A stretch of DNA of 64,000 nt from Minisyncoccota bacterium. GTDB lineage: Bacteria; Patescibacteriota; Minisyncoccia; Phycocordibacterales; UBA2100. Where the stretch lies: NCBI GenBank assembly GCA_043780835.1, contig JAYWCB010000010.1, positions 66,845 to 130,844 of the forward strand. The letters run 5' to 3'. The notes beneath the pieces were generated by a model that was not told the DNA's origin, ran no database searches, and saw nothing but the letters and a program-made list of their open reading frames with translations. How positions within the stretch are numbered: the stretch's first letter is position 1; each line of letters starts with the position of its first letter. A program made the position numbers and the translations under genes. Of this stretch, positions 7,173 through 54,552 are shown in pieces.

Positions 7173-7173
7173 G

Positions 7174-9437: not shown

Positions 9438-9494
9438 ACGTGAAAATCAGTACCGCTGGATTTCGTGTCGACTCTACGCTAGACTCCTCTCGAA

Positions 9495-9566: not shown

Positions 9567-9751
9567 CAATGCACAAAGGCCTGCGCAAGCAGGTCTTTGT
9601 GATTGATGCGACCGAGCATAGCGTCTGCGCGCTATGCGTGCAGGAATCGAACGCCGGAACGATGCGAGGTCAACAGACCGAGCAGTGAGGCGGTGCCCAG
9701 ACAAACTTTTGCGACGGCAAAAGTTTAGTCGAGGGAGATTCCGGCGTAGCC

Positions 9752-12862: not shown

Positions 12863-12917
12863 AACGCAATGATGCGCCCTGGAGGGCGCATCAACAATCT
12901 CTTATGCGTGGATAAGC

Positions 12918-13184: not shown

Positions 13185-13414
13185 TCCCGCGATACTACGC
13201 AAAAAAGCGCTCAAATGCAAGCCCGGTAGGACAATTTGCCGTCGCTCAATGAGCGACACGGTTACATCATCACTGTATTCGAAATCTCACCGCGGTGAAC
13301 CGTTTGGGTAATCAGCTCTCGCGAGCATCATAACGACAAATTGTACTGACCGGGCAAGCGTACAGCCGAGGCTCACGGCTCGGCGAAGGCCAAAGCGCAC
13401 GCTATGATGGATAT

Positions 13415-13984: not shown

Positions 13985-13985
13985 T

Positions 13986-22394: not shown

Positions 22395-22407
22395 GCGATA
22401 AATCGTA

Positions 22408-35716: not shown

Positions 35717-36225
35717 GATACCCGCCGTACCGACCCATCGATAACAAATAGATTTCCCGCGTCATCCTTTCCCAGATTATCGCGACCCGCATCGTCCCAA
35801 GTATATCCATCGTTCGCAAATTCTTTTTGTACCATTGCAACATCGTTGTCAGTAATTGCATCTGTCTGAAGTTTCTTTGAAATAACAACGCTTATTCCGT
35901 CTATTATCTCACTGTGCGAGGGTTTGAGAACACGTCGATGTTCAGGTTTCGCAGTCGGATACATCCCGCTTAACCGAATCACATTGTCCCCTGCGTCAAG
36001 CAAGACGGCGCTCATACCGTACCCGTCTTTAAGGGGTGTAAGGTCGTAAAACCCTTTTTCATGTAAATAACTTTCGACAGATTTCAATGCTGATTTTTTA
36101 GAGACAAGGTATTCGGCAATGGGGTCTGGAACCGCTTCCCCTTCCATTCCCGGTATTGGAGAAAGGCGTGTGAGGCCGCGAATAACATCGATTAACCCTT
36201 TTTTATTTCTTTCGATCGACTCCAT
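35713..36225 (-). CDS. Hypothetical protein
   Basis: Start MESIERNKKG overlaps the dnaN stop (ATGA). No family recognized. Confidence 0.3.
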   Translation of the reverse strand: MESIERNKKGLIDVIRGLTRLSPIPGMEGEAVPDPIAEYLVSKKSALKSVESYLHEKGFYDLTPLKDGYGMSAVLLDAGDNVIRLSGMYPTAKPEHRRVLKPSHSEIIDGISVVISKKLQTDAITDNDVAMVQKEFANDGYTWDDAGRDNLGKDDAGNLFVIDGSVRRVS

Positions 36226-38909: not shown

Positions 38910-39002
38910 GGTTTTTTGTTGATGTCTTGAGAACAATGTCAGGACATTATACGCACTTCGAGCGCGGTGGGAATCTTGACCGACCCTCAGCGGGGTGTTC
39001 AC

Positions 39003-39179
39003 AACTATGTGGATAACAAGGGGATATCTTTTTTCATTTAAATATGAGCACTCGGCTCGCGTACAAAATGCAAATCCCTTTTTTATGTTCCCCTCACCTC
39101 AGCGTCTCAGAAAACGATGAATTATTTTAATTTACGTGCACGATTGCGTTTTTCATAATCGTGTCGCATACTACGCCGC
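39003..39179. promoter_or_regulatory. dnaA upstream region with perfect DnaA box and AT-rich tracts; also rpmH promoter region
   Basis: tgtggataa at about 39008-39016; AT-rich ttttttcatttaaatatgag and attattttaatttacg. Confidence 0.45.
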
Positions 39180-39343: not shown

Positions 39344-39670
39344 ATGCCAAAAAAAAACCGGCTTACAGGGGCACAGATCCGTCGTTTGAAACCGGGAAAA
39401 AGGCTTATTTCAAGCCTTTTTTCGCTATCAGCGACAGTGCAGGAAAGTGCAGTAACGCAGATTGCATGTATTGTCTCAAAAAAAGTATCCGCAAAGGCGG
39501 TGGTACGAAATACCGTGAAGCGGCGGATGCATGCAGCGCTCGCCGGCACCAAACTCCCTACCGGTATGTCTCTTGTGCTAACCGCAAAGAAGACTGCGTC
39601 ACAATGCCCCTATAGCGAGGTGCACAAAGACATCACGATGCTGATCGAACGACTCCGTAGCGGGAAATAG
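39344..39670 (+). CDS. rnpA: Ribonuclease P protein component
   Basis: Basic 108-aa protein directly after rpmH; RNase P protein-like core. Confidence 0.8.
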   Translation: MPKKNRLTGAQIRRLKPGKRLISSLFSLSATVQESAVTQIACIVSKKVSAKAVVRNTVKRRMHAALAGTKLPTGMSLVLTAKKTASQCPYSEVHKDITMLIERLRSGK

Positions 39671-39695: not shown

Positions 39696-40430
39696 ATGAT
39701 TGGCACTGTTTTCCATACCGTCGTCTATTTACCGATCTATAACGCGCTGGTTTTCTTCGTTGATGCAGTACCGTCACATGATATCGGCATTGCCGTCATC
39801 ATCGTTACTATTATTGTACGGCTTATCCTCTTTCCCCTCGCACGCAAGGCTATCAAATCGCAGATGGCAATGAAGGCTGTGGCACCGGAAGTTGAAGAAC
39901 TGAAGAAAAAATACAAAGATAAACCGGAAGAACAAGGAAAGGCGATGTTTGCCCTCTATCGCGAGCGCAAGGTGAATCCCTTCTCTGGTTTTTTGCTGCT
40001 TTTACTGCAACTCCCGATTCTTTTAGGGCTGTACTGGGTCTTTGCGCGCGGCGGTTTCCCTACCGTTGACCCGAGCATGCTGTATTCCTTTATACGGGTT
40101 CCCGAAACGGTCAACATGCACTTTCTGGGCATACTTGATATGGGCAGCCATAGCATAGTGCTTGCCGTCTTGGTTGCGCTTACGCAGGCGGTATACACGC
40201 GTCTTTCGATGGGTCCCAAAGGTACCATTACGCAAACAGAGGCTTCATTTTCAGATGAAATGGCGAAAAGCTTTGATGTGCAAGCGCGCTACGTGCTTCC
40301 CTGCGTCATCGGCGTCGTCTCGTACTTTGTCGTTGCAGCAGCGCCACTCTACTGGGTAACCAGTAACCTCTTTATGATTGCGCAGGAAGCATTTGTGGGA
40401 CGTCGTTTTCACGGCCGACACATCATGTAG
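39696..40430 (+). CDS. yidC: Membrane protein insertase YidC (short, Gram-positive type)
   Basis: 5-TM 244-aa protein with the YidC conserved core (RLILFPLA...QLPILLGLYWVF); rpmH-rnpA-yidC-jag synteny. Confidence 0.8.
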   Translation: MIGTVFHTVVYLPIYNALVFFVDAVPSHDIGIAVIIVTIIVRLILFPLARKAIKSQMAMKAVAPEVEELKKKYKDKPEEQGKAMFALYRERKVNPFSGFLLLLLQLPILLGLYWVFARGGFPTVDPSMLYSFIRVPETVNMHFLGILDMGSHSIVLAVLVALTQAVYTRLSMGPKGTITQTEASFSDEMAKSFDVQARYVLPCVIGVVSYFVVAAAPLYWVTSNLFMIAQEAFVGRRFHGRHIM

Positions 40431-40486: not shown

Positions 40487-40954
40487 GTGCCCTTCATGCA
40501 CGATGTCGTCGAAATCATCCTGAAAGAACTGCTCGTAGCAATGGGTATAGCTGATGCAACGATCAGTCGCGGAGAAGTTGCGAGGCAGACTATTTTTTCT
40601 ATTCAAACGTCCGAGGCACGGGCGCTTATCGGTGCACACGGCGATACCGTTCAGGCGATGGACATGCTGGTGAAAAAGATCGCTGAGAAGCGTCTTGTTC
40701 CGGAAGCGGCACAAGATCTGCATTTTCTGGTAGACGTGAACGACTACCGGGTAAAGCAAATTAAGGATTTGCAAACTAAAGCGCTGATGATGGCGGATCG
40801 CGCCCGCAGCTTTCAATATGATGTAGAGCTCACGCCGATGAGCGCATACGAGCGTCTGATCGTGCACACCACCCTTCAAGACGCTCCCAATGTAAAAACG
40901 GAGTCTCAGGGTGAGGGACGAAACCGTCGGGTTGTAATCAAATACTCAGCCTAG
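40487..40954 (+). CDS. jag: Jag/KhpB-like RNA-binding protein (KH plus R3H domains)
   Basis: C-terminal R3H-like YERLIVHTTLQD...GEGRNRRVVIK; position after yidC. Confidence 0.65.
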   Translation: MPFMHDVVEIILKELLVAMGIADATISRGEVARQTIFSIQTSEARALIGAHGDTVQAMDMLVKKIAEKRLVPEAAQDLHFLVDVNDYRVKQIKDLQTKALMMADRARSFQYDVELTPMSAYERLIVHTTLQDAPNVKTESQGEGRNRRVVIKYSA

Positions 40955-40957: not shown

Positions 40958-41365
40958 CTACGAAATGCCCTTTATTTTGAGTTGCAGGATCTGAGGATTG
41001 ATCTGATTAAGAATGAGCCACACGCTCAGCAACAACAAGAGTCCGATTGTGACATCACCAAGAATTTCCTTCGCGTGCGATTTTTCTCCCCACGCGTCAG
41101 ATGACATGTATTGATAGCCGGCCCACGCGATGCGCAGTACCGCAAGAATTGCTCCGATAGAGAGCGTGATTTTGAATGCGGCGTTGATGAACGTCCCGAG
41201 ATCATTTGCTCCGGTTCCGATAGAGCCACCGGTAAGACCGAATATCTTTTGAAAATCAGCATCCTTCGTAAGCGGTACAAAGCCTCCGGCAGCAAGCGCA
41301 AAAGCCGGGAGAACACATGAGAGGGCAAAGGCACTACAGGAGACGAGGAGGTTTCTTTTTATCAT
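40958..41365 (-). CDS. VirB2/TrbC-like T4SS pilin candidate
   Basis: Signal peptide ending AFALAAGG, then two hydrophobic helices separated by a short loop (INAAFKITLSIGAILAVLRIAWAGY ... TIGLLLLLSVWLILNQI). About 135 aa. First gene of the minus-strand T4SS-like operon. Confidence 0.45.
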   Translation of the reverse strand: MIKRNLLVSCSAFALSCVLPAFALAAGGFVPLTKDADFQKIFGLTGGSIGTGANDLGTFINAAFKITLSIGAILAVLRIAWAGYQYMSSDAWGEKSHAKEILGDVTIGLLLLLSVWLILNQINPQILQLKIKGIS

Positions 41366-41372
41366 AGGTACA

Positions 41373-42608
41373 TTATTCACTGATTCTAAGCATCCAGAGC
41401 GACTTATCCGCAGCGTTGCGCCATCCGATATACGATCCTGTTTCGTCGATTGCGGGATCCTCAACATCGAACTCAGCGCGCGTATCGGGTACGAAGAATC
41501 GCTCTGCCGTTCCTTCAGACGCTTGTATTTTCCACCATACGTCTTTTGTGTGTGTCACCCCCTGGTACCAATTCGTGAGATACGATGCGCCCGTCTCCGT
41601 TGTCGGCACCGCGCAATATGCAATAAGTCCTGTGCCAGGCGCCCATGTGCATTTATCGGCCGTGGTTTCAATAGAGAGCTTCACTGCTTTTGATGAGCCG
41701 ACCTTAACGTACAGGGATAGTTTTCCCGCATCTGATGATCCGTACAAGTAGGCAGCGCTTGTTTCGTGATGAAGAACGGTCAGTCCCCTCACGTCGCTCA
41801 TCAGAGTTCTTGTAACGCCATTTGCGGCGACCATGAATGAATAGCCTGCTATGTCGTCTGATGCACTCTGTGTAATAACCACGCGTCCATCGGCAAGCAA
41901 CTGTGCTCGCCACTGGAACAGCGGAGAAGAGAAGATCTTTTTAACTGAACCCCCTTTCCAGTTTGCGCTCACCCCTAACGATCCTCCCTCAGGGAGGTGT
42001 GTCATAAAGAAGAGCCCGTGTGACGTCGGTTGATTGTTAGCAACATCGATCGCCACGATGTCTGGTGGGAGATAGGTACCTTCAAGCACATTCGCGGTCG
42101 ATGTTGATGTAATAACTGTCGTCGTTGCAATCGTTGCGGCAAATGATGTGATCGTCCCGGCGTCGTTTGTAGATCGTAAGATGACGTCTCCGGAGCGGCT
42201 GAAAAGCGCGTCGCGTACTTTTGGAATGAGTGTATTGGTTAAACGTAAAATCGAACTCGTCTGAGGATCAGCACGCAGAATATTTCCGGTCGCCCGCTCG
42301 GCGATGTATACCGATGTCCCACCCGGACCGAATCCAAAGCCTGCCACCGGCGTTTTTGTGACGTGCCATAAGCGGGGCGCTTGCTTTCCAATTTCTGCGA
42401 CCGTAGAGCTACCCGGTTGATCTGCTGTAATGTTTCGATAGGTGCTTCCGACTTGTCCGGTGAACGACGTAGAATCGCTCCCTCGCCCGCCGGCGTCGGC
42501 GATGGTTTGGGCGGTTTTACTTTTAATGAAAAAATACCAACCACCGAATCCGCCGACAATCATCACGATGAGGGCAGCGAGCGTGAACTGGATAATTTTA
42601 TTCTGCAT
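41373..42608 (-). CDS. N-terminally anchored periplasmic/extracytoplasmic protein (possible beta-propeller)
   Basis: Start MQNKIIQFTLAALIVMIVGG (TM), then about 380 aa of beta-rich sequence. Part of the T4SS-like operon. Confidence 0.35.
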   Translation of the reverse strand: MQNKIIQFTLAALIVMIVGGFGGWYFFIKSKTAQTIADAGGRGSDSTSFTGQVGSTYRNITADQPGSSTVAEIGKQAPRLWHVTKTPVAGFGFGPGGTSVYIAERATGNILRADPQTSSILRLTNTLIPKVRDALFSRSGDVILRSTNDAGTITSFAATIATTTVITSTSTANVLEGTYLPPDIVAIDVANNQPTSHGLFFMTHLPEGGSLGVSANWKGGSVKKIFSSPLFQWRAQLLADGRVVITQSASDDIAGYSFMVAANGVTRTLMSDVRGLTVLHHETSAAYLYGSSDAGKLSLYVKVGSSKAVKLSIETTADKCTWAPGTGLIAYCAVPTTETGASYLTNWYQGVTHTKDVWWKIQASEGTAERFFVPDTRAEFDVEDPAIDETGSYIGWRNAADKSLWMLRISE

Positions 42609-42609
42609 A

Positions 42610-43614
42610 TTATTTTCCGGTAAACGCATCGCTACTACCTCCGGCACTTCCCGCGCTCGAGCCGAATGTGACGATCCACGTTCCGTGCGCGTCGAGTTGA
42701 TAGTTGTTCTTGTGGGTGAGGGATAGATCAATTTTTGCCTCACCGCCGGCTGCACCGGCATTAATGGTTAGGGTGTTCGGGTGTTCCGTGTTCGATTCCA
42801 CTGACGCGTTGTTGACCCTCCAGATATACGAAAAAAGATTGTCGTTTGGACCGGATGCTTGCGCAAAATACGGGATAGCTGCGAATGACATTTCAGTATC
42901 CGAAACATGCGTCGTTGATTGAAGCGAATTGTGATACATAGTCCCGTACAGCGGATGTTCAAAATAGAGGCGCACCGGCGGATCGACGGTGAGGATGGAA
43001 AGCGTTCGCTCAGCGCTCAGCGTTTTATCCGACGTAGTGACACTCACCGATATGTCGTTTGTATCCGAGAGTGATGCAGTCGGCGTGGTGAATGATGACT
43101 TGCCTTTACCTGCCAACGCAATCTGCCCATCACGTTTCCACGTGAATGTAAGTTGTGATGCGAGCAATTCTGTTCCCTTTTGAAACATGTGCGGAAATGC
43201 CTGGAGTGTAATGTGTGTACCTTTGCTCGGCAGATGTTTTCCGCGGTAGAGCCCCGGTGCATATGAATCGGATTCCCACATCACGTCGACAGACGAGGGC
43301 GTAAGTGAAAGCGATGCCGTTTCGGGAATTCCTTGTACCGCGACTGAAATATCCATGCGCTCTCCCGTATTTGGAGCCGTAGTTCGATACATCATTTCGC
43401 CCTCGCCTTGCATCACAACAGTACCGCTGTTTTTCCATGTGATTATCCGGTTAGAGATATCAACAAGAGGATTTTGAATGGTGAACGTTACCGCATCATT
43501 TGGTTTGGGATACGGCGGCGATACTGAGAGAAAAAGCGATGGACCGAGATCGACCTGTGCGAAAACGGGTAACGCGAAAAAGAGCGTTATCAGCGGAATG
43601 AGGAAGTGTTTCAT
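42610..43614 (-). CDS. Secreted protein (cleavable signal peptide), unknown function
   Basis: MKHFLIPLITLFFALPVFAQV signal; Ser/Thr-rich. Part of the T4SS-like operon. Confidence 0.35.
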   Translation of the reverse strand: MKHFLIPLITLFFALPVFAQVDLGPSLFLSVSPPYPKPNDAVTFTIQNPLVDISNRIITWKNSGTVVMQGEGEMMYRTTAPNTGERMDISVAVQGIPETASLSLTPSSVDVMWESDSYAPGLYRGKHLPSKGTHITLQAFPHMFQKGTELLASQLTFTWKRDGQIALAGKGKSSFTTPTASLSDTNDISVSVTTSDKTLSAERTLSILTVDPPVRLYFEHPLYGTMYHNSLQSTTHVSDTEMSFAAIPYFAQASGPNDNLFSYIWRVNNASVESNTEHPNTLTINAGAAGGEAKIDLSLTHKNNYQLDAHGTWIVTFGSSAGSAGGSSDAFTGK

Positions 43615-45542
43615 ACGACGCCTGGTGCAAGCGGTGGTTCGGTTGCAGCCGCCGCGGGCTTAGCAATTGAAATATGTGAGCGCTGATCCTCAACAGCAGC
43701 GGTGCGCGCGTCGCTCGCGATTTGAAGATCCTGTTTTGCTTTTTTTATTGCAAGAATTTGAGACGGATCTGATGTGATGATCTGGTCTTCGGTATACGAT
43801 GCGATTACTTTGATTGCCACGTGCTTGAGACCGGCGAAGAAAATACCCTCCCCCACGTCAGACTCAAGGAGAAGGTATTTCTCCTCGTCGGAGAGTTTAA
43901 AAGTCTGCTGCACGAGGTCGACGGATGTCGGCGATTGACGCAGCAGCATTTGGATTGATGAGTTCGTAATCATTGGTACACCGTACGGAGAATTCAAAAA
44001 GTCTGAGACGTCCTGTGTGATGGTTGAGATACCGAGAAAGTATTTTCGTCCGCGCTTTGCGATAGAAAACAAGAACGACGCCGTGTCTTCAGAGCGCATC
44101 ATCCACCAGGCTTCGTCGATAATAAGCAGGCGTTTACGCAATTCTTTGCGGACCGTATTCCAAATGTGGTGCGTAATGATATACATCGCGACCGGTTTCA
44201 GATCGTCTTCCATGTCGCGCACTGAAAAGACGACGAGTTTTTTGTTCATGTCAACGTTTGTCGGCCGATTCATAAATCCGGACCACGTCCCCTTGGTGTA
44301 TTTCGAAAGGCGCGCCACAAGCGACTCAGATCCTTCCATGCCCGAAAGCACGAGTTCGAAGTCGGAAAGCAGCGGTGGCTCCACTGCTGCAAAGTTTGCA
44401 TCCGCAGTGATGTCTTTGAGTGCGTATGTTTCGGTGATGGCGCGATCGATCACCGCGTCTTCTTCCGGGGTTAAACCGCCGAGCATGATACGGAAGAGTC
44501 CGACAAGCGTGATGATGTTGTTGCGAAGCACATCAGAGGCAGCCTCATCTTCACGCGGTATCGGTAGATCAAACGGATTAATGTGATGTTCGGACGAGAG
44601 TGAGATATTGAAATACCGACCGCCCACGGTTTCTGCGAGATATTCATATTCGCGTTCAGGGTCGATAACAATGACCTCCGTGTCGAACATGAGTGAGCGC
44701 AAGATCTCGAGCTTCGTCGTGTATGACTTGCCGGCGCCGGATTTCGCGAATGTTACAGAGTTGTAGTTTTCGAGCGAGAAACGATCGAAAAGAATGAGCG
44801 AAGAATTGTGACGGTTAATGCCGTACAGGATGCCTCGGTCTGAGGTGAGGTCGAACGATATGAACGGAAAGATAGATGAGAGCGGGGCGGAGTTGAGTTT
44901 CGTATGGACATCGAGTTCGTCGGTTGCGATCGGCAATACGGAGCGGAAACCCTGTTCCTGTTGAAAGAGTGCGGGTCGGATGTAAACGAGGCGGGACTCA
45001 AGGATAGAACGGACTTCGGACTCTGTTTTATCGACTTCTTCGCGCGTAGCACCATAAATTGTCATGTACAGTCCTACATCGAAAATACGCTCTTGAGCCT
45101 GTTGCAGCGAATCGCGGAGTTGTTCGAGATCGGAATACGCGGTATCCAGCATCGGGTCTCGCACCATTCCCTTCTCTTCTCGGGTAGAAATTTGACTCTG
45201 GACCTCGGCGACTTTCTTTTGGAATTTGCGCAGCATCTCGTTGGTATCCATCGGGTGGATGAATATGGAAATATCGATCACCTTGTCCATGTTGATGATT
45301 GGTGCAAACCAGCCCGTCGTAAGGAAACGCGGATATGAAATGACGAAAAACGTACGTGCTATTTTCTCGCCCAAGTCCAGTTCATGCGACGAAATCTTGA
45401 GCGCGTGCGGAGCGATGACGTCTTGCAGGTCGAGTACGCCGGTTTGGTAGATTTCATCGGGCAAGACCGGCAGCACATTCGGGCCGAGCTCTTGTCGCTT
45501 ACCTAATCCGAGTGATTCGAACAGTCCCATACCCTTACACAC
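43611..45542 (-). CDS. virB4: Type IV secretion system ATPase VirB4 (Gram-positive PrgJ/TcpF-like)
   Basis: N-domain KIARTFFVISYPRFLTTGWFAPIINMDKVIDISIFIHP; Walker A FAKSGAGKSYTTK, VIVIDPEREY, Walker B LLIIDEAWWMM. Confidence 0.8.
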   Translation of the reverse strand: MCKGMGLFESLGLGKRQELGPNVLPVLPDEIYQTGVLDLQDVIAPHALKISSHELDLGEKIARTFFVISYPRFLTTGWFAPIINMDKVIDISIFIHPMDTNEMLRKFQKKVAEVQSQISTREEKGMVRDPMLDTAYSDLEQLRDSLQQAQERIFDVGLYMTIYGATREEVDKTESEVRSILESRLVYIRPALFQQEQGFRSVLPIATDELDVHTKLNSAPLSSIFPFISFDLTSDRGILYGINRHNSSLILFDRFSLENYNSVTFAKSGAGKSYTTKLEILRSLMFDTEVIVIDPEREYEYLAETVGGRYFNISLSSEHHINPFDLPIPREDEAASDVLRNNIITLVGLFRIMLGGLTPEEDAVIDRAITETYALKDITADANFAAVEPPLLSDFELVLSGMEGSESLVARLSKYTKGTWSGFMNRPTNVDMNKKLVVFSVRDMEDDLKPVAMYIITHHIWNTVRKELRKRLLIIDEAWWMMRSEDTASFLFSIAKRGRKYFLGISTITQDVSDFLNSPYGVPMITNSSIQMLLRQSPTSVDLVQQTFKLSDEEKYLLLESDVGEGIFFAGLKHVAIKVIASYTEDQIITSDPSQILAIKKAKQDLQIASDARTAAVEDQRSHISIAKPAAAATEPPLAPGVV

Positions 45543-45664
45543 GAAACGGCATTGTGCTTACAGCACGTGCCATCCCGTAATTACTGGTAAGTATCGCATT
45601 TAAAATCAGTTGTCGTCGCAAACCAATATCTATTATATTCATGTCGTTTCGTGTGAGGGGCATA

Positions 45665-46327
45665 TTATTGTTGTGCGAGCGACATCGGCTTCGAATCCTC
45701 TCCCGGGTTAAACATTTTATATAACAGCTCAATTGCTTCTTCGGTGCCCAGCTGCACGGTGCGTACCCCGGTGCGTATAAGACCTTGTTGCACGATTGCG
45801 ATACGCTGTTCTAACTGCGTAGCCTGTTCTTCAAACGTGCGATTTTCTTCAGCGGCATTTGCCTTCTTTTTACTGAACGGATTAAACGACGAGACACCGC
45901 CGCTCGTTGAAATAACTGCCGGCGTGTATGGAACCACGACAAAAAAGTTTTTTGTCATAATGTTCGCGGCTTCGGTAAAGCTGCGGATGAATTCTATATA
46001 TTCACGAATTTGAATACGCATGAGGTCATCAAGCTGACCTTTGTAGGCCTCTTCGAGCGTTGCGACGTACGGTCGGATATCGAGTTGGCGAGATTGTACG
46101 AAAATCTGGCACGAAAAATCGAGGGAGTTCAGGAAGTTTTGAAACTGCACAATAAACGCAGTTTGCTCGTCTTCGGATTTCAGTGCGAAGTTGATCGATG
46201 AGGCGAGAAGTACCGCACGTAAGCCGTTGTCTTTCATAATGACGACGCCGTCTCGCACCTCTTTAATCGGCACAAATTCCTGTGTCGATTTATTATCGTT
46301 GCGTGTGTTAGATCCAATTTGGGGCAT
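45665..46327 (-). CDS. Standalone protein resembling the N-terminal domain of VirB4-family proteins (no ATPase domain)
   Basis: VPIKEVRDGVVIMKDNGLRAVLLASSINFALKSEDEQ...FQNFLNSLDFSCQIFVQSRQLDIRPY resembles the PIKDI..DG.I.TKDG..KILEI.PINF.LKSEEEQ start motif of Gram-positive VirB4s. Confidence 0.35.
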   Translation of the reverse strand: MPQIGSNTRNDNKSTQEFVPIKEVRDGVVIMKDNGLRAVLLASSINFALKSEDEQTAFIVQFQNFLNSLDFSCQIFVQSRQLDIRPYVATLEEAYKGQLDDLMRIQIREYIEFIRSFTEAANIMTKNFFVVVPYTPAVISTSGGVSSFNPFSKKKANAAEENRTFEEQATQLEQRIAIVQQGLIRTGVRTVQLGTEEAIELLYKMFNPGEDSKPMSLAQQ

Positions 46328-46331
46328 ACCA

Positions 46332-46838
46332 TTACTGAGTGAGCGACTTCAATGCCTCGCGGGGTGTTCGGATACCGCGGTATACATCTTCGCCGCGGAT
46401 TGCATTTCTGTCTTTTTCATTGCCGTAGCCGGCCGCGATGCGTTCTTTAATGTCGAGGCTCCACGCGAGTTCGTGCAAACGGCTATCGGAGAGCTTCGGT
46501 ACATAGAGGTTTTCCTGCGGCACGACCGGATTCTGACGCTCTTGAGCGATACGCGACTTCGTCTTGTTGTTCCAGAGATAAAGCTTCGTGTGTATGACAT
46601 AGAAAAAGGATGTTTCGAGTGCAATCATGAATGGCCGACCGTTGTATTGCATAAACGCAAGGGCAATTGCAAAACCCATTACGCCGATAACGAGTGGGGC
46701 GGCGATAAACACCGGCAATAAGCGCCACAAGAGGTAGGCGAGTCCTAAGCCGCCCGCAATATAGACGAATTGCTTGAATGTAAAGGGTCCGAAGATTTTA
46801 TCTTCGACCTCAATGAATTGAGGTACTTGGAACTGCAT
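46332..46838 (-). CDS. VirB3/PrgI-like small T4SS membrane protein
   Basis: MQFQVPQFIEVEDKIFGPFTFKQFVYIAGGLGLAYLLW then a second TM helix; located directly upstream of VirB4. Confidence 0.5.
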   Translation of the reverse strand: MQFQVPQFIEVEDKIFGPFTFKQFVYIAGGLGLAYLLWRLLPVFIAAPLVIGVMGFAIALAFMQYNGRPFMIALETSFFYVIHTKLYLWNNKTKSRIAQERQNPVVPQENLYVPKLSDSRLHELAWSLDIKERIAAGYGNEKDRNAIRGEDVYRGIRTPREALKSLTQ

Positions 46839-46913
46839 ACCGTATTAGTATACCTTGCACTTTCTGCAGTCTGCGCGCCTCCGAGCACGCAATATGTTTA
46901 TAGAATCAGATGC

Positions 46914-47507
46914 TTACAAGAGTTGTTCACGATACGGATCCCCTTCGATAGATTTGCGCTCATGGCTCGCGCTCCCTGCATATGTTTGGGCAACCTGGGC
47001 ACGCACCGCCTTTTCTTCGGGAGCGGGCGGCGGTGGTGTGCCGGGTAAAACAGCGGACGTACCAGTTTCAGGACTCGGGGCGGACGTGTTCACCGGAGAC
47101 GCATTTGCCGCAGCGGCGCCGAGCTCTTGCGCACGCACGGCTTCCACGTCTGAAATAGCCGCTTGTACAGCCGCCGGATGATCGAGCGAGCGTTCCATTT
47201 CGCCGCGTATGGGGCTAAATACAATATCGGAGATACTCGTGGCAAGCTCGACTGCCACCTCTTCGGTGATTGCGAGGTCTTTTTGAAGGTGCTGAGTCAA
47301 TTCAGCAACCGGTTGGAAGCCGAGCAATGTGAGCATGACGTTGTTTTCAAGTACCTGCCATTGATCAACATGCAGTTTATGCCCCTCCGCCAAGTCCCGC
47401 ATGTGCTTCTGCACATCGGCAGACGTGATTGCGTCCTGTACTACTTTTGGAAGTGTTTTAAAACGTTCCTCCAGTTTCTTATCGAAGTCTGTTTCCGTGG
47501 AATCCAT
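46914..47507 (-). CDS. Hypothetical acidic protein with Pro/Ala-rich C-terminus
   Basis: ORF in the T4SS-like operon; no family recognized. Confidence 0.3.
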   Translation of the reverse strand: MDSTETDFDKKLEERFKTLPKVVQDAITSADVQKHMRDLAEGHKLHVDQWQVLENNVMLTLLGFQPVAELTQHLQKDLAITEEVAVELATSISDIVFSPIRGEMERSLDHPAAVQAAISDVEAVRAQELGAAAANASPVNTSAPSPETGTSAVLPGTPPPPAPEEKAVRAQVAQTYAGSASHERKSIEGDPYREQLL

Positions 47508-47509
47508 AT

Positions 47510-49870
47510 CTATGCGTGCTCACCCCCGGCCGAGGGATTTTTTTCTTCATTCTTTTCTATCTTCTCCAGCCGGTCGAGCAGTCGTTTCGAATTCGACGTG
47601 CTTTTATATGTTTCGTCCATATGGTGCTGGATGATGTGCTCCGCTTCATGGCCACCACCGCGCAGATTTACATCGCGTTGAACAACTTGTTGAATTCCTT
47701 CCTTTACGCCTTTTTCTGCCTCATCAAGGCGCTCCCTGTATTTTTTATTCACATCAGCGTCTCGCGGTTTTGCTTCTGCGATAGCTTTTTTGTTATTGCT
47801 TACGATTGCTGCCTGCTCTGCCTCTTCTGTACGGTTTAAAATTTCCTGTGCCGCTTTTTGCTGTCGTTTTGTCAGCGCAGCACGAGGTGCCTTTATTTCG
47901 GAGGTTATCTCGTCCACTTTTGCTCGGGCCGCTGTAATGTTTGCGGCTTGTTTCTGAAGTTCTTCAGCGTGCTCCGCTTTGCGAGTTGCGACGGCTCGAA
48001 GTTGATTATCTTTGTCTGCGCCATTTGCCTGTTGCGCCTTTTGCATCATGATGTTGATTTCTGCGCCATGGCTCGCTTCCATTTGCGTCTTACGAGTATC
48101 GTGAATCTCGACTTCTCGCTGCGCAGCATCTAGTGCAGGCGCCTTTTCAATAGAATTTTGAACAACTTGCTTGTCCGCTGCAGCGTTGAGTGTCGGATCA
48201 TCTGCCGCCGCCTTTTCCTTATGCGCTTGTTCGAGCGCAGTTTTGGCAACCTCGAGACCCTTCGCTGCATTTTCAGCGTTTTTATTGTTGGTGGCTTGTA
48301 TTTCGTCTGACGCTTTTTTACGAATGGCATCTTTATCGCTCTGCGTGAGTAGAATCGCCTTCGCCTTCTGCTCCAAATTCTTTGCGCGCTCTTCTGCTGA
48401 CCCAGCAAAGCTCGATTTCTTTTCACCAGCAAGCACACCAGCTAGTCCAGCGGAGCCGGCAGCTGCCTTGCCAAGGTTCGTGTTGAGCGGATTGAAGCTT
48501 GCGTGCGCTCCCTTATCGGCTATCGATTTCAATTTGCGCAAACGCTCCACTTTGTCCCAATCTTTCGGATCTTGCGTTTGAATTGCACGCAGTTTCGCCG
48601 TTTGCATACGTTTGTTTGTCGCATCAGACGCGGCTTGTGATGCGCGACCTATTGAAAGCTGTGCAAGCCGTGCCGCCCCACGTGTGCCGAATGCGAGCGG
48701 GATACCTGCAGCCATTTGACCGATCTTTACGCCGCTGATCGATCCGGCCAGCGAGCTTGAGAGGCGGATCGAAGTAAACAACAGTCCGGTGCCGAGGATA
48801 TAGGCAAAGATGATGTGCCATCCATCTGCGAGCACTTGTTTCATCGGGTCGTTATCAAACGCACCCAGAGTGTTCCCCGGTCCGATTGATCCGGCAGACG
48901 ATTGCATGATGAGAATGGACACCGAGAGAAACATCATAAACAACGGCGCAAATGCCGCGTTATTAATGAGCGCTTTCCACCAATTACCCCAACCGAACTG
49001 GCTCGCTTCAAAATGCGGAGACAGATACGTGGCATATGCGAGTGGCGCAGTGAGCATAAGTAAAATAAACATAATGGCGCGCGCAATAATAAGAAACGCA
49101 CCGTACAGTATAACGACAGACAGAGTCGCAAGAATGAGGAACCCAAACAGACCGAATGCCAACGCCTTTAACGAGCCGCTAAATTCTGATTGGTTGTATA
49201 CGGCCTTTGCGAGATCGGATGTATCCCACGTACCCGATATGTGGAGCGGTTTGAGAATTTTTTCAGCAATGCTAAAGACCACCGGTCCGCCTGCCGCGGG
49301 TGCGGCGCCCGCGGTCTGTGAATAAATGGTATACGCTGCAAAATTTGACGCGTCGATTATAATTTTAGTGAACAATAAACTGAAATTCAGCAAGACTGCA
49401 ATGATGAGTACGCGTGCGATGAGTTTTTTCTGTCCGTATTCCGTCAGTCCGAGAATGAGACTAATGGCAATGAATACGAAAATACCGATGATCAAGATAT
49501 TTGCGAGATCTCGGAAAAATGTCCACCCACCGTTGATGATCGGCATGAGGTGCATTTGTGTATCGAGCGTATCTTTGAAGTTGATGATGATGTGATTGAT
49601 TGCGAAATCAAACATGGCGCCCGAGAAGCGCAAGATTGATCCGCCGAGCTCGAGAAGCATAGAACTGCCCCATTTCGCGAGTGGTATGCCGATACATTGT
49701 GCAAAATCAAACGATACAATGGGGATACAAGCGCTTCCCCTCGATTGAATACTTTTGTCTGCGCTCGTCGCTGCAAGCGCAACAAACGGGACCGCGGCGC
49801 ATACGACCAGAAACAGTGCGAGTACCGCTCCTGCGATAGACCATCGATGAGTGCGAGGTGTCAGCATATT
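47510..49870 (-). CDS. VirB6/TrbL-like polytopic membrane protein with about 350-aa C-terminal coiled-coil extension
   Basis: N-terminal signal/TM and at least 6 TM segments (LANILIIGIFVFIAISLILGL, LIARVLIIAVLLNFSLLFTKIII, ...), then a K/E/A/Q-rich predicted coiled coil. Confidence 0.45.
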   Translation of the reverse strand, partial: NMLTPRTHRWSIAGAVLALFLVVCAAVPFVALAATSADKSIQSRGSACIPIVSFDFAQCIGIPLAKWGSSMLLELGGSILRFSGAMFDFAINHIIINFKDTLDTQMHLMPIINGGWTFFRDLANILIIGIFVFIAISLILGLTEYGQKKLIARVLIIAVLLNFSLLFTKIIIDASNFAAYTIYSQTAGAAPAAGGPVVFSIAEKILKPLHISGTWDTSDLAKAVYNQSEFSGSLKALAFGLFGFLILATLSVVILYGAFLIIARAIMFILLMLTAPLAYATYLSPHFEASQFGWGNWWKALINNAAFAPLFMMFLSVSILIMQSSAGSIGPGNTLGAFDNDPMKQVLADGWHIIFAYILGTGLLFTSIRLSSSLAGSISGVKIGQMAAGIPLAFGTRGAARLAQLSIGRASQAASDATNKRMQTAKLRAIQTQDPKDWDKVERLRKLKSIADKGAHASFNPLNTNLGKAAAGSAGLAGVLAGEKKSSFAGSAEERAKNLEQKAKAILLTQSDKDAIRKKASDEIQATNNKNAENAAKGLEVAKTALEQAHKEKAAADDPTLNAAADKQVVQNSIEKAPALDAAQREVEIHDTRKTQMEASHGAEINIMMQKAQQANGADKDNQLRAVATRKAEHAEELQKQAANITAARAKVDEITSEIKAPRAALTKRQQKAAQEILNRTEEAEQAAIVSNNKKAIAEAKPRDADVNKKYRERLDEAEKGVKEGIQQVVQRDVNLRGGGHEAEHIIQHHMDETYKSTSNSKRLLDRLEKIEKNEEKNPSAGGEHA

Positions 49871-51458
49871 ATGGTGTCGGGCACGTCCCGCTTCCGCTCC
49901 AACAGGCGGTCCATTTGTCTTTTGTTCCCTGACTGTCAGCACACCAGCCAACGGGAGCGTCAACGCTCTCCCAATTCTTAAATGTGTCGGTTATCAATTT
50001 GGACATTTGCTGCGCGATGACGGTTTGATTCGCCGATTCCGCATTTGTGGCGGTGACGTCATGTGGCGCAATCCCCGCGAGGCTCGCGAGCGCTTGCGTT
50101 TGTGCTGCCGCAGATCCGTTCGCCCGCAGATCCGTTATGAGTCCGTTGATCCGATTTTGAATCGGTGTTGAGCTATTCAGTCGAGTGATCGCGGCGTTAG
50201 AAAGCGCTTTGGTACCGGCATCAATCACTGTTTTTGCAAAGGGCGGCTTCGAAAACGTGAGCGTACCACCACTGGTGCCCGTGCAAGCCGTGCTCGTGAT
50301 GGTGCCCGCCTGACATACCGCATTTTGAATGGTAGTGAAACACTGTGTTTCTTTTGCGGTGAGCTGATTGTTGGTCGAAGTAAATAATTGAATGGTTTTG
50401 CCGACCTCGGACGCGTATTTTATCTCTTGTGTGAGTGCCGCCTGCAGGGCTGAAAGCACCACATTATTTGTCGCATCTACATAATCTCCACCGGTTTTTT
50501 GTACGACTTGTAGCATGTATGACGCCGCACCTTGCGTAAGGCCGGCCAGACCCTTGGAACTGCCCGTGAGTACCTGGTTTACAACACCCAAATAGAGCCC
50601 GTCGATCATTTCATTGATATCATCTGCTTGTTGCGCCTGCACATACGGTGATTCAACCGATTGCAATGCAACTGCCCCCACGATCCCGCCCGGCGTGTCG
50701 GTGTATCGGAAGCCATTTTCGTCGTAGTGGGCAACATCGTAAATACCGTTGCCCCAGCTCAACCGTTCTCTGTTCTTGTACAACTCGTATGCGCCTTGGT
50801 TTGTCAGTGCGTTATACCCGATATCGGCCGCAAAGAGCACGCTGCAGGAAGGATTATCTGCGACTGCGTTGAACCCGTCCCAATAATTGCCGACCGGGAC
50901 GCCGTTATACACCGCTTCAAGATCGCCACCATCATCGGCATACTTACATGCAAACGATCTTCGTGGATCGCTCGCGTTGATGTATCCGAGTGCAATTGCC
51001 TGTTTCACTTTTCCCTTGAGCACTGCATTGAATCCTGAAAGACTGTCATTATCTTCAAGGTAGCGAACCATTGTTTTTTCGCTCAGCTTCCATTCTTCTT
51101 GGCCGAGTTCACGGGACGGAAATCCGCCAAACGTAGGATTTCCGCTCCCGTCCGTACTCGAATTAAATCTCGAGAGCACTTTTTCATCAACGGTCGCGAG
51201 CGCGGCTTTACGCTTGCTCGTGACGATCTCCCTTAGCACGCACTCCTTATAGACGAGAATTCCTGTATTGAGCTCAACTGCATAGTCTGCCACCGGCACA
51301 TACGGTCCTCCGAGTGGCTGCGTTGATCCCGCGCTCGCGGTGGAGGCACCGTTTCTGCTGCAATTAAAAACCGTGCTATCAGCAACGTCTGAGAATGTTA
51401 CAAACGGTATCAAGCTGAGACAAGAAACGATGACCGTGATGAGCGCTGTACGTTTCAT
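49869..51458 (-). CDS. Large secreted protein (signal peptide), Gly/Ala/Thr-rich, Cys pairs; unknown
   Basis: MKRTALITVIVSCLSLIPFVTFSDVADS signal. Possible T4SS surface/adhesin component by position. Confidence 0.35.
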   Translation of the reverse strand: MKRTALITVIVSCLSLIPFVTFSDVADSTVFNCSRNGASTASAGSTQPLGGPYVPVADYAVELNTGILVYKECVLREIVTSKRKAALATVDEKVLSRFNSSTDGSGNPTFGGFPSRELGQEEWKLSEKTMVRYLEDNDSLSGFNAVLKGKVKQAIALGYINASDPRRSFACKYADDGGDLEAVYNGVPVGNYWDGFNAVADNPSCSVLFAADIGYNALTNQGAYELYKNRERLSWGNGIYDVAHYDENGFRYTDTPGGIVGAVALQSVESPYVQAQQADDINEMIDGLYLGVVNQVLTGSSKGLAGLTQGAASYMLQVVQKTGGDYVDATNNVVLSALQAALTQEIKYASEVGKTIQLFTSTNNQLTAKETQCFTTIQNAVCQAGTITSTACTGTSGGTLTFSKPPFAKTVIDAGTKALSNAAITRLNSSTPIQNRINGLITDLRANGSAAAQTQALASLAGIAPHDVTATNAESANQTVIAQQMSKLITDTFKNWESVDAPVGWCADSQGTKDKWTACWSGSGTCPTP

Positions 51459-52291
51459 ATCGATTTCTTTGCGAAGTAGGAGCGCAGAGCGTTGTATGCG
51501 TCATGGATTCCCTGCTCTTTTTCATTATAGGTACGCAGCAGTGCAACGGAAGCAAACGGATCGTCGGCGTGATCTGCAAGGCCATCAAGCACGGAGGAGA
51601 ACGCGCGCAACGAATTCAAAACCTCGCGGTGATAATTGACGGCGTCACTGGGAACCGTAAGTGAAGCACCGGCCTTCGCAGCGGCACGGTAGGAGTTGGC
51701 GGCATCTTTTAGTCGCACCAAATATTTTTTGTCGCTGGTTTCAACATATCGTCCGTATATTTCGTATTCAGCATTGGGAATAGATGAGATGGGCGCCAAT
51801 GCGGTGAGTAGATTGTCGCGGTAGGTACGTACACGTTCTGTTGAAACATCAGGATCGGTCTTGAAGTCTCCGTTCTTGAACATGTCGTAGGAAACCGCGG
51901 CCTTCAAATAGACTGCGATTTTTTCTGCGGCGGTGCGCAGATCGTCTTGCGTATAGGCGCCGTTTGCACGGATTGCAGAATACGATCCGAACAGTTCACC
52001 TTTGATCATGGGCCCGATCATTGCGAGGTGATCGGTTGATGTCGTAGCCGAAGAATCGGTAGATGTTGTTTTGCCGAGCAGCAGTAATGCCTGTTGCAGA
52101 TCCGGTGTTCCATCGGACAGATCTTTTTGTGACGGCGTGCTCGATGCGATAGCTGCAATGGGTGATGCCACAGGGGGGCGTATCAGCGCGATGATCCGTG
52201 CGACTGAAACGCCGCCGAGGAGCAATATAGAGAGTGTTGCAGTCACTGCAATAGAAGAAGAGCCGCCGAGAATCCCGCGTAATTTCTGCAC
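51455..52291 (-). CDS. Bitopic membrane protein (N-terminal TM plus about 230-aa extracytoplasmic domain)
   Basis: Topology resembles VirB8-like components; no sequence-level proof. Confidence 0.3.
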   Translation of the reverse strand: MQKLRGILGGSSSIAVTATLSILLLGGVSVARIIALIRPPVASPIAAIASSTPSQKDLSDGTPDLQQALLLLGKTTSTDSSATTSTDHLAMIGPMIKGELFGSYSAIRANGAYTQDDLRTAAEKIAVYLKAAVSYDMFKNGDFKTDPDVSTERVRTYRDNLLTALAPISSIPNAEYEIYGRYVETSDKKYLVRLKDAANSYRAAAKAGASLTVPSDAVNYHREVLNSLRAFSSVLDGLADHADDPFASVALLRTYNEKEQGIHDAYNALRSYFAKKSI

Positions 52292-52366
52292 ACTAAAAGT
52301 ATACCTCGCCGCACTACGCGTCGGTGGCGTACTTTCGGTAAGATATGGGATATCTGCAAGAGGCTA

Positions 52367-53242
52367 TCAGTTGTGACGAAAACTAAACACTGATCCTGCG
52401 TCCGTTTCTTCAAAGGCAACACCGGCGCTCGAAAAAAATGAGGCAAGAGACACAAGTGCGCGAGTATTGACGTCTGCTTTGTTGTTGTAAGCGGTAATCG
52501 CTGCAATAAATGCCTGATCATCCGTCGCATCGGGCACGTGAGCGAGCGCGGTCCCCAGATTTACGTATGACTCACCCAATGTTTTGTGCAGTGCGATCGC
52601 GCTGGGGAGCACATCATGAATGGCAAGAATACTCTCTCCAAGCGATTGATATCTAAGGCCGAGATCGCGTACCGCAGTACCCATCTGCTGATTTGCGCGG
52701 TGATTGATTTGGTCGGTCAGGGTTTGCGTCATATTTAGGTTAACGGCAGAAAATCCCTGCAGGCGCGATCCGATTGCGTTACCGTACGCAAATAATGCGA
52801 TTTGTTCAGGGGCTTTAGTTTTTTCAGCGGGCGCGCTCGTCTTTGGTGAGTACGAAAACGCACTCATCAGTTCCTCGTACGTTTTATTAGCCTGTTGGGC
52901 GGGGGTTGTTGCCGTATCGTGTCGCATTTGCGCAAGCAGCGCGTTGTAATCAAACGTGTCGTCGGATTGGCTTGGTTTTTTTGCAGTGGTCGTTGTTGCT
53001 CGCGGAGCCGGAATGGCGAGTGTATCGGGATCGGTTTGCGTGAGCACGTGTGCGTCGGAACGAGAACTTGTATCAGCCGCAACAGGTGTTTCGGTCGGCG
53101 CGACGTAGCCCCCCTCTGTTTGCCAGGAAACACTGGCACCGTTCGGCGCAACAGCGCTCTCACGTGCTACAAAATAAAATCCGACTGCTACCAGGATGAG
53201 CGCGGCGAGGAGTGTCAGGATAACCGGATGCCTGAAGTTCAT
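52367..53242 (-). CDS. Bitopic membrane protein (N-terminal TM), unknown
   Basis: Start MNFRHPVILTLLAALILVAVGFYF. Ser/Thr/Ala-rich extracytoplasmic part. Confidence 0.3.
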   Translation of the reverse strand: MNFRHPVILTLLAALILVAVGFYFVARESAVAPNGASVSWQTEGGYVAPTETPVAADTSSRSDAHVLTQTDPDTLAIPAPRATTTTAKKPSQSDDTFDYNALLAQMRHDTATTPAQQANKTYEELMSAFSYSPKTSAPAEKTKAPEQIALFAYGNAIGSRLQGFSAVNLNMTQTLTDQINHRANQQMGTAVRDLGLRYQSLGESILAIHDVLPSAIALHKTLGESYVNLGTALAHVPDATDDQAFIAAITAYNNKADVNTRALVSLASFFSSAGVAFEETDAGSVFSFRHN

Positions 53243-53291
53243 TATCAGAAGTATAGCGCACACACGTCCACTGATGTCGTATACTTCATGC

Positions 53292-53615
53292 ATGCGATCA
53301 ATTGCCGGTATGCTTGTGGGAATTTTTCTACTGACAGTTCCGACCGCTGTGTATGCACAGACAAACCCCTTCGGTGGTCCGATCACTCAGATTATCTTTT
53401 GCTACAACCAAGCTATCTGGACCACGATCGGCCCGCCCGTGGGAGGTATTTATATTTGGACACCCTCAACCGTAACGTATCCCTTCGGTCCGCCTGCGCA
53501 CACCGGCCAGTATTTGCTCGGACTCTACGGCGCTCCGTACTATTGTTTGGTTTCGATTGTACCGATTATCGTATACGCCGGCATTTCGATAACTATGATG
53601 GGCAGTTCTCAGTAA
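53292..53615 (+). CDS. Small secreted protein with C-terminal hydrophobic segment (pilin-like candidate)
   Basis: MRSIAGMLVGIFLLTVPTAVYA signal, Pro/Gly/Tyr-rich mature part, C-terminal YYCLVSIVPIIVYAGISITMMG. Divergent from the T4SS-like operon. Confidence 0.3.
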   Translation: MRSIAGMLVGIFLLTVPTAVYAQTNPFGGPITQIIFCYNQAIWTTIGPPVGGIYIWTPSTVTYPFGPPAHTGQYLLGLYGAPYYCLVSIVPIIVYAGISITMMGSSQ

Positions 53616-53775
53616 CAAAATCAGTGCCTGCGCACTGATCTTGTACGAGAACTGAGCCGCAGGTATATCGCGGCGATCACGCCGTGATTCCGAGGCGGGG
53701 TCGCGGAATTTTGTTTTCGTCGGAAAACAAAATATCTGTGACCAAGTTGGTCAGATTTCCCCCGAGGTTCAGCTG

Positions 53776-54552
53776 TTACTGTGTCAGCGCCCTCGTTATC
53801 CCCTTCCACTCCTCAACATGAATAGTTTCCGCGCGCGCTTTTTGCGGTATGCCCGAGCGCGCGAGCGCTGCAAGCGCCTTCTCCTTGCCGAAGGCAACCG
53901 CAAGATTATTTGAAACGAACTTCCGTCTGGATGCGAATCCTGCCCGTACCGCACGAAAGAAATCCGCTTCGCTGACATCGCCAAAAAAATCTTTTGACAC
54001 GTGTTCGATGACGAGTATCGCGGAGTCAACCTTCGGTGCCGGCGAGAAATGTTTTTTTGGAACCTTATCCGTGATGCGCGGCTTCCCGTACGCTTTCACC
54101 GAAAGGGATAGTATGCTTTCTGTCGCGCTCACGATGCGTTGTGCAACTTCTTTTTGTACAAGAAGCGCAAGCGCCCGCGGCTGCACGGTGGCCGTTAGAA
54201 ACTGGCGAATGATTTCACCCGTAATGTAGTACGGAATATTCGCCGCAACGATGTACGCCTCGAGTCCGAGAGATTCCGCGGTCACATTGCGCACGTCGTC
54301 TTCAACGAGGCGAAGTCTTCCCGAAGCGATGTGCTCCTGGAAAGTGGTGCGCAATTTTCCAACCAGCTCGGGATCTTTCTCGATCGCAACCACCGGACCG
54401 AGTGTAAGTAGTTCGCGCGTGAGCATACCCTTCCCGGGACCGATTTCCACATAGGTCTCGGTGCGCTCGAGCGGAATCGCATGCGCAAGTGCTCGCGCAG
54501 CCCATGAATGTATAAGAAAGTGTTGGCCCAATTTGGCTCCAGTGCGACTCAT
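53776..54552 (-). CDS. rsmA: 16S rRNA (adenine1518/1519-N6)-dimethyltransferase RsmA/KsgA
   Basis: KLGQHFLIHSWAARALA..., VEIGPGKGMLTREL SAM motif, NIPYYIT. Confidence 0.85.
   Translation of the reverse strand: MSRTGAKLGQHFLIHSWAARALAHAIPLERTETYVEIGPGKGMLTRELLTLGPVVAIEKDPELVGKLRTTFQEHIASGRLRLVEDDVRNVTAESLGLEAYIVAANIPYYITGEIIRQFLTATVQPRALALLVQKEVAQRIVSATESILSLSVKAYGKPRITDKVPKKHFSPAPKVDSAILVIEHVSKDFFGDVSEADFFRAVRAGFASRRKFVSNNLAVAFGKEKALAALARSGIPQKARAETIHVEEWKGITRALTQ

Follow-up and report, generated by a model that had tools for sequence, protein, structure and literature searches.

The question addressed here is whether a type IV secretion system (T4SS)-like operon that lies beside the probable replication origin of a Minisyncoccota bacterium is a mobile conjugative element or a resident part of the chromosome, and which function it might serve. 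The operon was encountered in a window of 64,000 nucleotides (nt) of contig JAYWCB010000010.1 (positions 66,845 to 130,844; assembly GCA_043780835.1), to which all coordinates given below refer. It consists of 11 tightly packed open reading frames (ORFs) on the minus strand, running from 53242 down to 40958 and designated g11 to g01 in order of transcription. Patescibacteria account for much of the diversity of bacteria and rely on host cells, and their T4SS is the only one that has been reported to be essential for the growth of its owner. The operon is taken here, with a probability of about 85%, to encode a conserved, relaxase-free chromosomal T4SS that derives from MPF_FATA-type machinery and serves the epibiotic lifestyle rather than conjugation.

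An unusual Gram-positive-like T4SS, encoded by SEML1_0006-0019, was described in the saccharibacterium Southlakia epibionticum by Wang et al. 2023 (PMC10633639). This system includes essential pilin genes and has no recognisable coupling protein or relaxase, and transposon sequencing (Tn-seq) revealed that epibiotic growth requires it, whereas a mutant lacking comEC was viable (PMC10633639). In the 3,035 genomes analysed by Quinonero-Coronel et al. 2025, the VirB4 proteins of Patescibacteria form a monophyletic clade nested in MPF_FATA, genes for TrsD, PrgI/VirB3, VirB6 and VirB2-like pilins are found near virB4, VirB8 homologues are almost absent, and relaxases occur in only 103 of the 3,035 genomes; the Paceibacteria T4SS locus lies near dnaA, dnaN, ksgA, rnpA, and rpmH (PMC12102498). 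The operon in the window is a member of this described Patescibacteria-clade T4SS, with which it shares the VirB4 with TrsD, PrgI/VirB3, putative VirB6, and VirB2-like pilin genes nearby, the chromosomal position by dnaA, dnaN, ksgA, and rnpA, the many unannotated neighbours, and the absence of an adjacent relaxase or type IV coupling protein (T4CP). Its headline points have already been published, and it constitutes no new kind of system; it is a clean, well-conserved Paceibacteria example from a Kaiserbacteria-like organism, to which this analysis adds the reading of VirB4 as split, fold descriptions of the accessory proteins, a protein with a terminal DPYRE motif, and a Bacillota cluster of the same gene order. 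Judging from the legend of Fig. 6 of the 2025 survey, neighbouring genes without a hidden Markov model match appear to be left unassigned there, whereas the accessory proteins are described here at the level of their folds (PMC12102498).

Conservation of the Operon Beside the Origin

At least 570 relatives of the VirB4 protein g04 were detected in GTDB species genomes, and the best 80 were used for comparison of the loci. All of these 80 belong to metagenome-assembled genomes of Patescibacteria (73-96% identity), labelled as Kaiserbacteria, Paceibacterota, Nomurabacteria, Taylorbacteria and so on (mostly Paceibacteria). The order uvrD-rsmA-[g11...g04-g03-(g01/g02)]-jag-yidC-dnaA-dnaN was the same in all 80 loci where the contig was long enough. 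Relative to the nearest species, synonymous divergence (dS) is saturated at amino acid (aa) identities of 50-95%, and strong purifying selection acts on all genes, with a ratio of nonsynonymous to synonymous divergence (dN/dS) of approximately 0.01-0.1 where it was estimable. Identity is 95% for VirB4 (g04), 90% for the TrsD-like g05, 82% for PrgI (g06), about 75% for g07, and 50-66% for the surface-exposed proteins; the core and cytoplasmic parts are strongly conserved and the surface parts are fast-evolving. This comparison of sequences supports the view that the operon has been inherited vertically and is fixed in the chromosome by the origin.

The operon is flanked at one end by dnaN (36225-37322, minus strand), dnaA (37560-39002, minus), rnpA (39344-39670, plus), yidC (39696-40430, plus), and jag, which encodes a Jag/KhpB-like R3H+KH protein (40487-40954, plus), and at the other end by rsmA/ksgA (53776-54552, minus) and uvrD (54556-56451, minus). 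Spacing between neighbouring operon genes ranges from a 4-nt overlap up to approximately 135 nt, with overlapping stop and start codons at g10/g09 and g04/g03, and only 3 nt separate the stop codon of jag from the 3' end of the operon. An earlier note, made from the letters of this DNA, had described twelve minus-strand genes that follow yidC-jag in a core chromosomal context. The tight run of genes and its adjacency to yidC-jag were recovered, although only 11 of the genes are on the minus strand, the ORF that reaches 53615 being the plus-strand gene g12, and the operon converges on jag instead of following it on the same strand. The core context is borne out by the flanking genes and by their synteny in about 80 species.

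A single perfect DnaA box, TTATCCACA, occurs in the window; it is positioned at 39008-39016, a short distance upstream of the start of dnaA. The cumulative skew of guanine over cytosine (GC skew) has its minimum at approximately 36-40 kb. Taken together, these features place the operon a few kb from the probable origin, towards which it is transcribed. Over the whole window 18 DnaA boxes were found versus 11 expected, an excess that is not significant overall; suggestive evidence is limited to the location of the one perfect box. The genes g01-g11, rsmA, and uvrD run head-on with replication, an orientation that is kept in all related loci, and the proximity to oriC may increase the dosage of the operon genes. 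The GC content of the block is level with that of its flanks, and no tRNA genes were found at its borders, the nearest being at 18.5 kb. Promoter and terminator scans remained at or below the expectation from shuffled sequence and were uninformative.

Outside the operon, 31 ORFs of 66-1036 aa were included in the domain scan, and approximately 10 ORFs of 130-224 aa were left out. Among the ORFs scanned across the 64-kb window, no relaxase, T4CP, VirB11, integrase, or transposase domain was detected, in agreement with the earlier observation that relaxase, VirD4/T4CP and VirB11 are missing from view.

A Putative Split of VirB4 over Two Genes

Based on its NCBIfam and Pfam matches, g04 (43611-45530, minus) encodes the body of a VirB4 ATPase of the CD1110/MPF_FATA type. 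The protein scored 367.6 bits against the NCBIfam model 'VirB4-like conjugal transfer ATPase, CD1110 family' (cut-off 325), of which it spans positions 185-733 of 752, and it aligned with positions 293-893 of VirB4_plasma and 271-724 of VirB4_CagE. In addition, it matched the Pfam models P-loop_TraG (85.7 bits) and AAA_10, and its translation contains intact Walker A (GAGKS) and Walker B (LLIIDEAW) motifs. The extreme N-terminal domain of VirB4 is lacking from g04. The gene g05 (45665-46327, minus) encodes a TrsD-like protein that appears to be this domain in detached form: it matched positions 96-233 of VirB4_plasma (E 4.3e-11) and the TrsD model (E 8.6e-6), and covers positions 4-181 of VirB4_CagE and 2-117 of the CD1110 model. 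The matches of g05 (E 4e-11 to 4e-5) stay below the full-length cut-offs and are restricted to N-terminal VirB4 regions and TrsD.

The split was tested by comparison of the g05 and g04 family profiles with the full-length, 797-aa CD1110-type VirB4 of the Clostridium botulinum plasmid pCDC3875. The g05 profile aligned with residues 22-189 of this protein (E 1.7e-9) and the g04 profile with residues 210-758 (E 1e-98). Since these parts of VirB4 are complementary and contiguous, g05 and g04 are better read as one VirB4 that was presumably split by gene fission than as a complete VirB4 accompanied by an extra N-like copy. The earlier note had seen a full VirB4 with its N-domain and a standalone VirB4-N-like protein; the VirB4 assignment and the N-domain homology were both recovered, while the former protein proved to lack the extreme N-domain and the latter would be the TrsD-like, detached half of the same ATPase. 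No relation emerged when the N-terminal region of the g04 family was aligned with the g05 family by hhalign (probability 0.2%), which can be explained by g05 being the missing N-domain and not a duplicate of a domain that g04 retains. The same split is present in a cluster of Pontibacillus (L083:5365-7758) that is discussed below.

Pilin, PrgI/VirB3, and VirB6 Components

Two of the small membrane components could be assigned with confidence above curated cut-offs, in both cases as the earlier note had proposed. The g01 product (40958-41365, minus) is a VirB2/TrbC-like T4SS pilin (Pfam T4SS_pilin, 32.6 bits versus a cut-off of 26.6) with a signal peptide followed by two transmembrane (TM) helices, and it also matched the NCBIfam Mbov_0395 pilin-like model (E 5e-5). 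The g06 product (46332-46838, minus) is a PrgI/VirB3-like small membrane protein (Pfam PrgI, 44 bits versus a cut-off of 27) with two adjacent hydrophobic segments. In more distant species the order g03-g01-g02 is found, with the pilin gene before the propeller gene, versus g03-g02-g01 here, and many pilin homologues of distant species are much longer (median 235 aa in the tblastn set versus 135 aa here).

In the polytopic membrane protein g08 (47510-49867, minus), six or more hydrophobic segments precede a hydrophilic C-terminal tail of approximately 400 aa, which resembles SMC and dynactin coiled coils in profile matches. No significant Pfam match was obtained for g08 itself, and its NCBIfam match to CD3337_EF1877 is weak. 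The Pfam TrbL/VirB6 model was matched by 9 of 60 g08 orthologues (best E 6.7e-7), and the g08 profile matched the 779-aa Pontibacillus protein at the VirB6 position with an E-value of 1.2e-20, part of the tail included. Based on these orthologues and this homologue, g08 is accepted as a putative extended VirB6, a class of proteins that has been discussed before (PMC12857230). The coiled-coil-tailed VirB6 proposed earlier is thereby upheld through its relatives, whereas the copy in the window fails the thresholds.

Accessory Proteins

The remaining operon genes had been grouped as secreted or TM-anchored proteins without a recognisable family, a description that fits them except for g07. The g07 product (46914-47507, minus) is a cytoplasmic protein in which neither a TM segment nor a signal peptide was found. 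Family alignment revealed a conserved N-terminal helical domain of approximately 110 aa, a hypervariable proline-rich linker, and an invariant C-terminal DPYRE motif, positioned three to four residues from the C-terminus. Of the 80 loci, 65 each contain a single C-terminal DPYRE, and within the g07 family, comprising at least 487 clusters, no Pfam domain and no named member was found. The motif looks like a docking peptide, and g07 is a candidate adaptor or docking factor.

The g02 product (41373-42608, minus) is anchored by an N-terminal TM segment (residues 5-23) and is predicted to be a TolB-like beta-propeller, as had been guessed before: its family profile matched 12 TolB structures (E 3e-4 to 2e-3), and PD40 repeats were found in 3 of 63 orthologues. 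The g03 product (42610-43614, minus) is secreted by means of a signal peptide and contains three immunoglobulin (Ig)-like repeats; its consensus displays the motif W..NG three times, and its profile matched the Ig domains of phage T4 Hoc (E 1.1e-4). The g03 gene directly follows VirB4 in 77 of the 80 loci.

The g09 product (49869-51458, minus) is a secreted, cysteine-containing protein of 529 aa. Its predicted structure, with a predicted local distance difference test score of 74.7 for the whole model and of more than 90 for the C-terminal half, consists nearly completely of long helices. The g09 family comprises 2,757 clusters at 50% identity, and those among the matches listed are all close relatives. 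A Foldseek search with the g09 model yielded nothing significant, with TrwJ/VirB5 at rank 26 (E 1.9), and no g09 homologue matched the VirB5 models of Pfam. Compared to the VirB5/TraC tip adhesin of diderm T4SSs (PDB 1r8i; TrwJ in 7o3v), g09 is about 2.5 times larger and gives no signal at the sequence level, and the Foldseek similarity is not significant in a fold class, helical bundles, that matches promiscuously. Its likeness to VirB5 is a tentative and rather shaky lead, and g09 can be considered a candidate tip protein or adhesin. Profile searches of the PDB provided nothing useful for g05, g09, and g10.

The first two genes of the operon encode bitopic membrane proteins. In the g11 product (52367-53242, minus), which had no match in Pfam or NCBIfam, a disordered linker connects an N-terminal TM segment (residues 7-25) with a helical domain at the C-terminus. 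The g10 product (51455-52291, minus) was modelled with an extracytoplasmic four-helix bundle. The two are paralogous (hhalign probability 95.6% over 146 columns), which was the only relation detected in an all-against-all hhalign comparison of the 12 families; g12 was not detectably pilin-like. Both have the bitopic topology of VirB8 and were considered as candidates for it, and both were rejected, g10 since its model, the one candidate that was modelled for this purpose, is a four-helix bundle, and g11 by paralogy. The rest of the operon encodes a propeller and proteins of Ig-like, helical, or polytopic type, none with the NTF2-like fold of VirB8, and the search for VirB8-like folds that the earlier note had suggested found none. 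Some g10 orthologues (L023:3225-4160, L024:3213-4052, and L034:2457-3431) carry D-x-D-x-D-G and 'PDWQE' linker motifs that resemble thrombospondin-type calcium-binding repeats.

Relatives of the System

The nearest plasmid VirB4s to g04 are all encoded in Bacillota or Actinomycetota (28-36% identity). As part of the reading favoured here, the system very probably descends from monoderm MPF_FATA conjugation machinery. It has the CD1110-family VirB4, PrgI, and the VirB6-like protein in common with the conjugative MPF_FATA T4SSs of Bacillota (CTn2/CD1110 type; pGO1 trs and pIP501 tra). The gene order VirB6-PrgI-x-VirB4 of C. botulinum pCDC3875 is found here as well, and a TrsD-type protein precedes VirB4 in pGO1 as it does here (PMC12102498). 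Moreover, the models for the pilin-like Mbov_0395 and the VirB4 Mbov_0397 of the Mycoplasma integrative and conjugative element (ICE) are matched by g01 and g05. A VirD4-like T4CP, an SLT/CHAP hydrolase, and a relaxase are encoded in cis in the conjugative MPF_FATA systems, and none of the three is present here. In pCDC3875, VirB4 is a single 797-aa protein and not split as in the window operon, and counterparts of the accessory genes g02, g03, g07, and g09-g12 are lacking. Compared to the S. epibionticum system, the window operon has one pilin gene instead of an array of six, and no peptidase or lysozyme directly after virB4.

By profile searches a cluster was detected on a megaplasmid of Pontibacillus sp. 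ALD_SL1 (NZ_CP062975.1, locus 4540-14093) that has the same order as the operon described here: pilin-like, long-tailed VirB6-like of about 780 aa, PrgI-like, TrsD-like, and VirB4. It contains two pilin-like genes (E 1e-10 and 1e-13 with the g01 profile), and its PrgI-like, TrsD-like, and VirB4 proteins were matched at E-values of 9e-8, 2.4e-37, and 1.7e-131, respectively. The cluster differs from the window operon in its location on a plasmid rather than at a chromosomal origin, in a 1,051-aa M23 peptidoglycan endopeptidase encoded directly after VirB4, and in the absence of homologues of g02, g03, g07, g09, g10, g11, and g12. Its pilin-like genes indicate that VirB2-like pilins also occur outside the T4SSs of diderms and Patescibacteria. 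Some monoderm relatives thus have a pilin-like gene, a VirB4 in two parts, and a VirB6 with a long tail as well, so that none of these is an invention of the patescibacterial lineage. The idea of the earlier note that several parts are lineage-specific can therefore be retained for g02, g03, g07, and g09-g12, which have no counterpart in Pontibacillus or pCDC3875, and not for the VirB6 tail or the pilin-like gene. The Pontibacillus plasmid has been typed as 'non-mobilizable', and its T4SS-like cluster adjoins flagellar genes.

Proposed Function and Alternative Explanations

The features described above suggest a machine for interaction with the host cell rather than for conjugation. PrgI/VirB3 may anchor the split VirB4, composed of the TrsD-like N-domain and the ATPase body, to the membrane beside the extended VirB6, and VirB4 with TrsD could then power the assembly of the VirB2-like pilin into a pilus-like tube that passes through the platform of VirB3 and VirB6. 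The rapidly evolving proteins, i.e., the protein with three Ig-like repeats, the propeller, the pair of four-helix-bundle proteins, and the helical g09, might constitute a part that spans the wall or contacts the host envelope, and g07 may connect cytoplasmic partners via its DPYRE tail. In place of conjugation, the apparatus would serve an exchange of macromolecules, proteins or others, between the epibiont and its host bacterium. This non-conjugative role agrees with the Tn-seq data for the saccharibacterium (PMC10633639). A 2025 FEMS review discusses the possibility that the T4SSs of Patescibacteria form a pilus conduit through which exchange with the host takes place (PMC12857230), and tubular structures at the parasite-host interface, which may be T4SS pili, are described in a 2026 preprint (10.64898/2026.06.21.733656). 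A Gram-positive-type, possibly non-conjugative apparatus had also been suggested by the earlier note, and the CD1110/MPF_FATA character of VirB4 together with the lack of a relaxase or coupling protein in view is consistent with it. The folds assigned here to the individual genes, together with the split VirB4, the extended VirB6, and the DPYRE protein, could serve as a guide for experimental work on the operation of such a machine in the absence of a coupling protein.

Several points weigh against this proposal. The absence of relaxase and T4CP applies to the window, and either may lie elsewhere in the genome; in most Patescibacteria genomes VirD4-like genes are far from virB4 (PMC12102498). 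The data on essentiality come from Saccharimonadia, with a pilin array and adjacent hydrolases that are lacking here. Furthermore, no VirB8-like or VirB1-like component was found within the operon, the VirB6-like protein of the window itself is below every curated threshold, and the pilus is a prediction from the genes.

Other explanations are less compatible with the data. An ordinary ICE, or a remnant of one, of which the relaxase, coupling protein, and integrase lie beyond the window, would fit with g04 passing the cut-off of a family that is named after a conjugative transposon gene (CD1110) and with relatives of g04 residing on conjugative plasmids. The recurrence of the block, with its housekeeping neighbours unchanged, in about 80 species, together with strong purifying selection on all its genes, excludes an ordinary ICE, an alternative that the earlier note itself had raised; the absence of integrase, relaxase, and T4CP from the ORFs scanned, the GC content that equals that of the flanks, and the lack of a border tRNA gene also argue against it, making any such element highly improbable. 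The lack of relaxase and T4CP could be expected of a T4SS-derived DNA-uptake (competence) machine like Helicobacter ComB or archaeal Ced, which would import DNA of the host or the environment for nucleotides or recombination. The ComM-like gene and RuvB in the window, and the co-localisation of ABY1-class T4SS loci with comF, recG, and radA (PMC12102498), point in this direction, as does a weak, partial match of g04 to CedB (E 3.3e-9), but the latter scores 35.9 bits versus a cut-off of 700 and concerns the P-loop region only. Moreover, ComEC, ComEA, DprA, or ced genes are not found adjacent to the operon, and competence in S. epibionticum needs type IV pili and ComEC (PMC10633639, PMC12857230). 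Since its comEC deletion mutant is viable and its T4SS is essential, DNA uptake does not explain the essentiality, and such a role in Paceibacteria appears less likely; overall it is regarded as improbable.

A purely adhesive pilus or surface structure for host attachment, through which nothing is translocated, would account for the VirB2-like pilin, for the number of surface proteins that evolve fast (the Ig-like protein, the propeller, and the helical bundles), and for the absence, among the ORFs scanned, of a coupling protein to recruit substrates. However, type IV pili already serve adhesion in Patescibacteria (PMC12857230) and a PilB-like ATPase is encoded in the window, some T4SSs such as Ptl and Brucella VirB still secrete proteins without a T4CP (PMC12102498), and the conservation of the extended VirB6, together with a cytoplasmic protein that bears the DPYRE motif, points to an interface with the cytoplasm, so that adhesion as the only function is unlikely. 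A more specific form of the host-interaction reading, in which a coupling-protein-free conduit of the VirB2-like pilin, with g09 as a VirB5-like cap and g07 as an adaptor on VirB4/TrsD or on the VirB6 tail, would draw macromolecules such as RNA or nucleotides from the host instead of exporting DNA, is doubtful.

Neighbouring Genes

The gene g12 (53292-53615, plus) encodes a small conserved secreted or membrane protein of 107 aa, for which no family match was found; it begins with a signal peptide and has a hydrophobic segment at the C-terminal end. It is divergent from the operon, with approximately 50 nt between the start codons of g12 and g11. Its position is kept in about 25 related loci, and with a single exception the gene and the operon lie on opposite strands there. 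Its identity to the nearest species is 90%, and that of the adjoining g11 is 58%. Whether g12 is part of the T4SS is uncertain. A terminator-like hairpin is located 3' of g12, at 53682-53706.

Elsewhere in the window, six large ORFs of 381-1036 aa had no Pfam match even at an E-value of 0.1; all are on the minus strand (9752-12862, 19104-20840, 20895-22475, 61070-62332, 62786-63931, and 8202-9437). Three further genes were noted at distances of up to about 15 kb from the T4SS operon. The first encodes a PilB-like type IV pilus ATPase of 563 aa with T2SSE and MshEN domains (26146-27837, plus), the sole ATPase of the T2SSE superfamily among the ORFs scanned, and the second a ComM-like Mg-chelatase/MCM-type protein (59456-61024, minus). 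The third (56791-57903, plus), situated 3.4 kb from the operon and on the opposite strand, encodes the only nearby cell-wall hydrolase, a peptidoglycan endopeptidase with LysM and M23 domains, which could act as a stand-in for the missing VirB1-type hydrolase.

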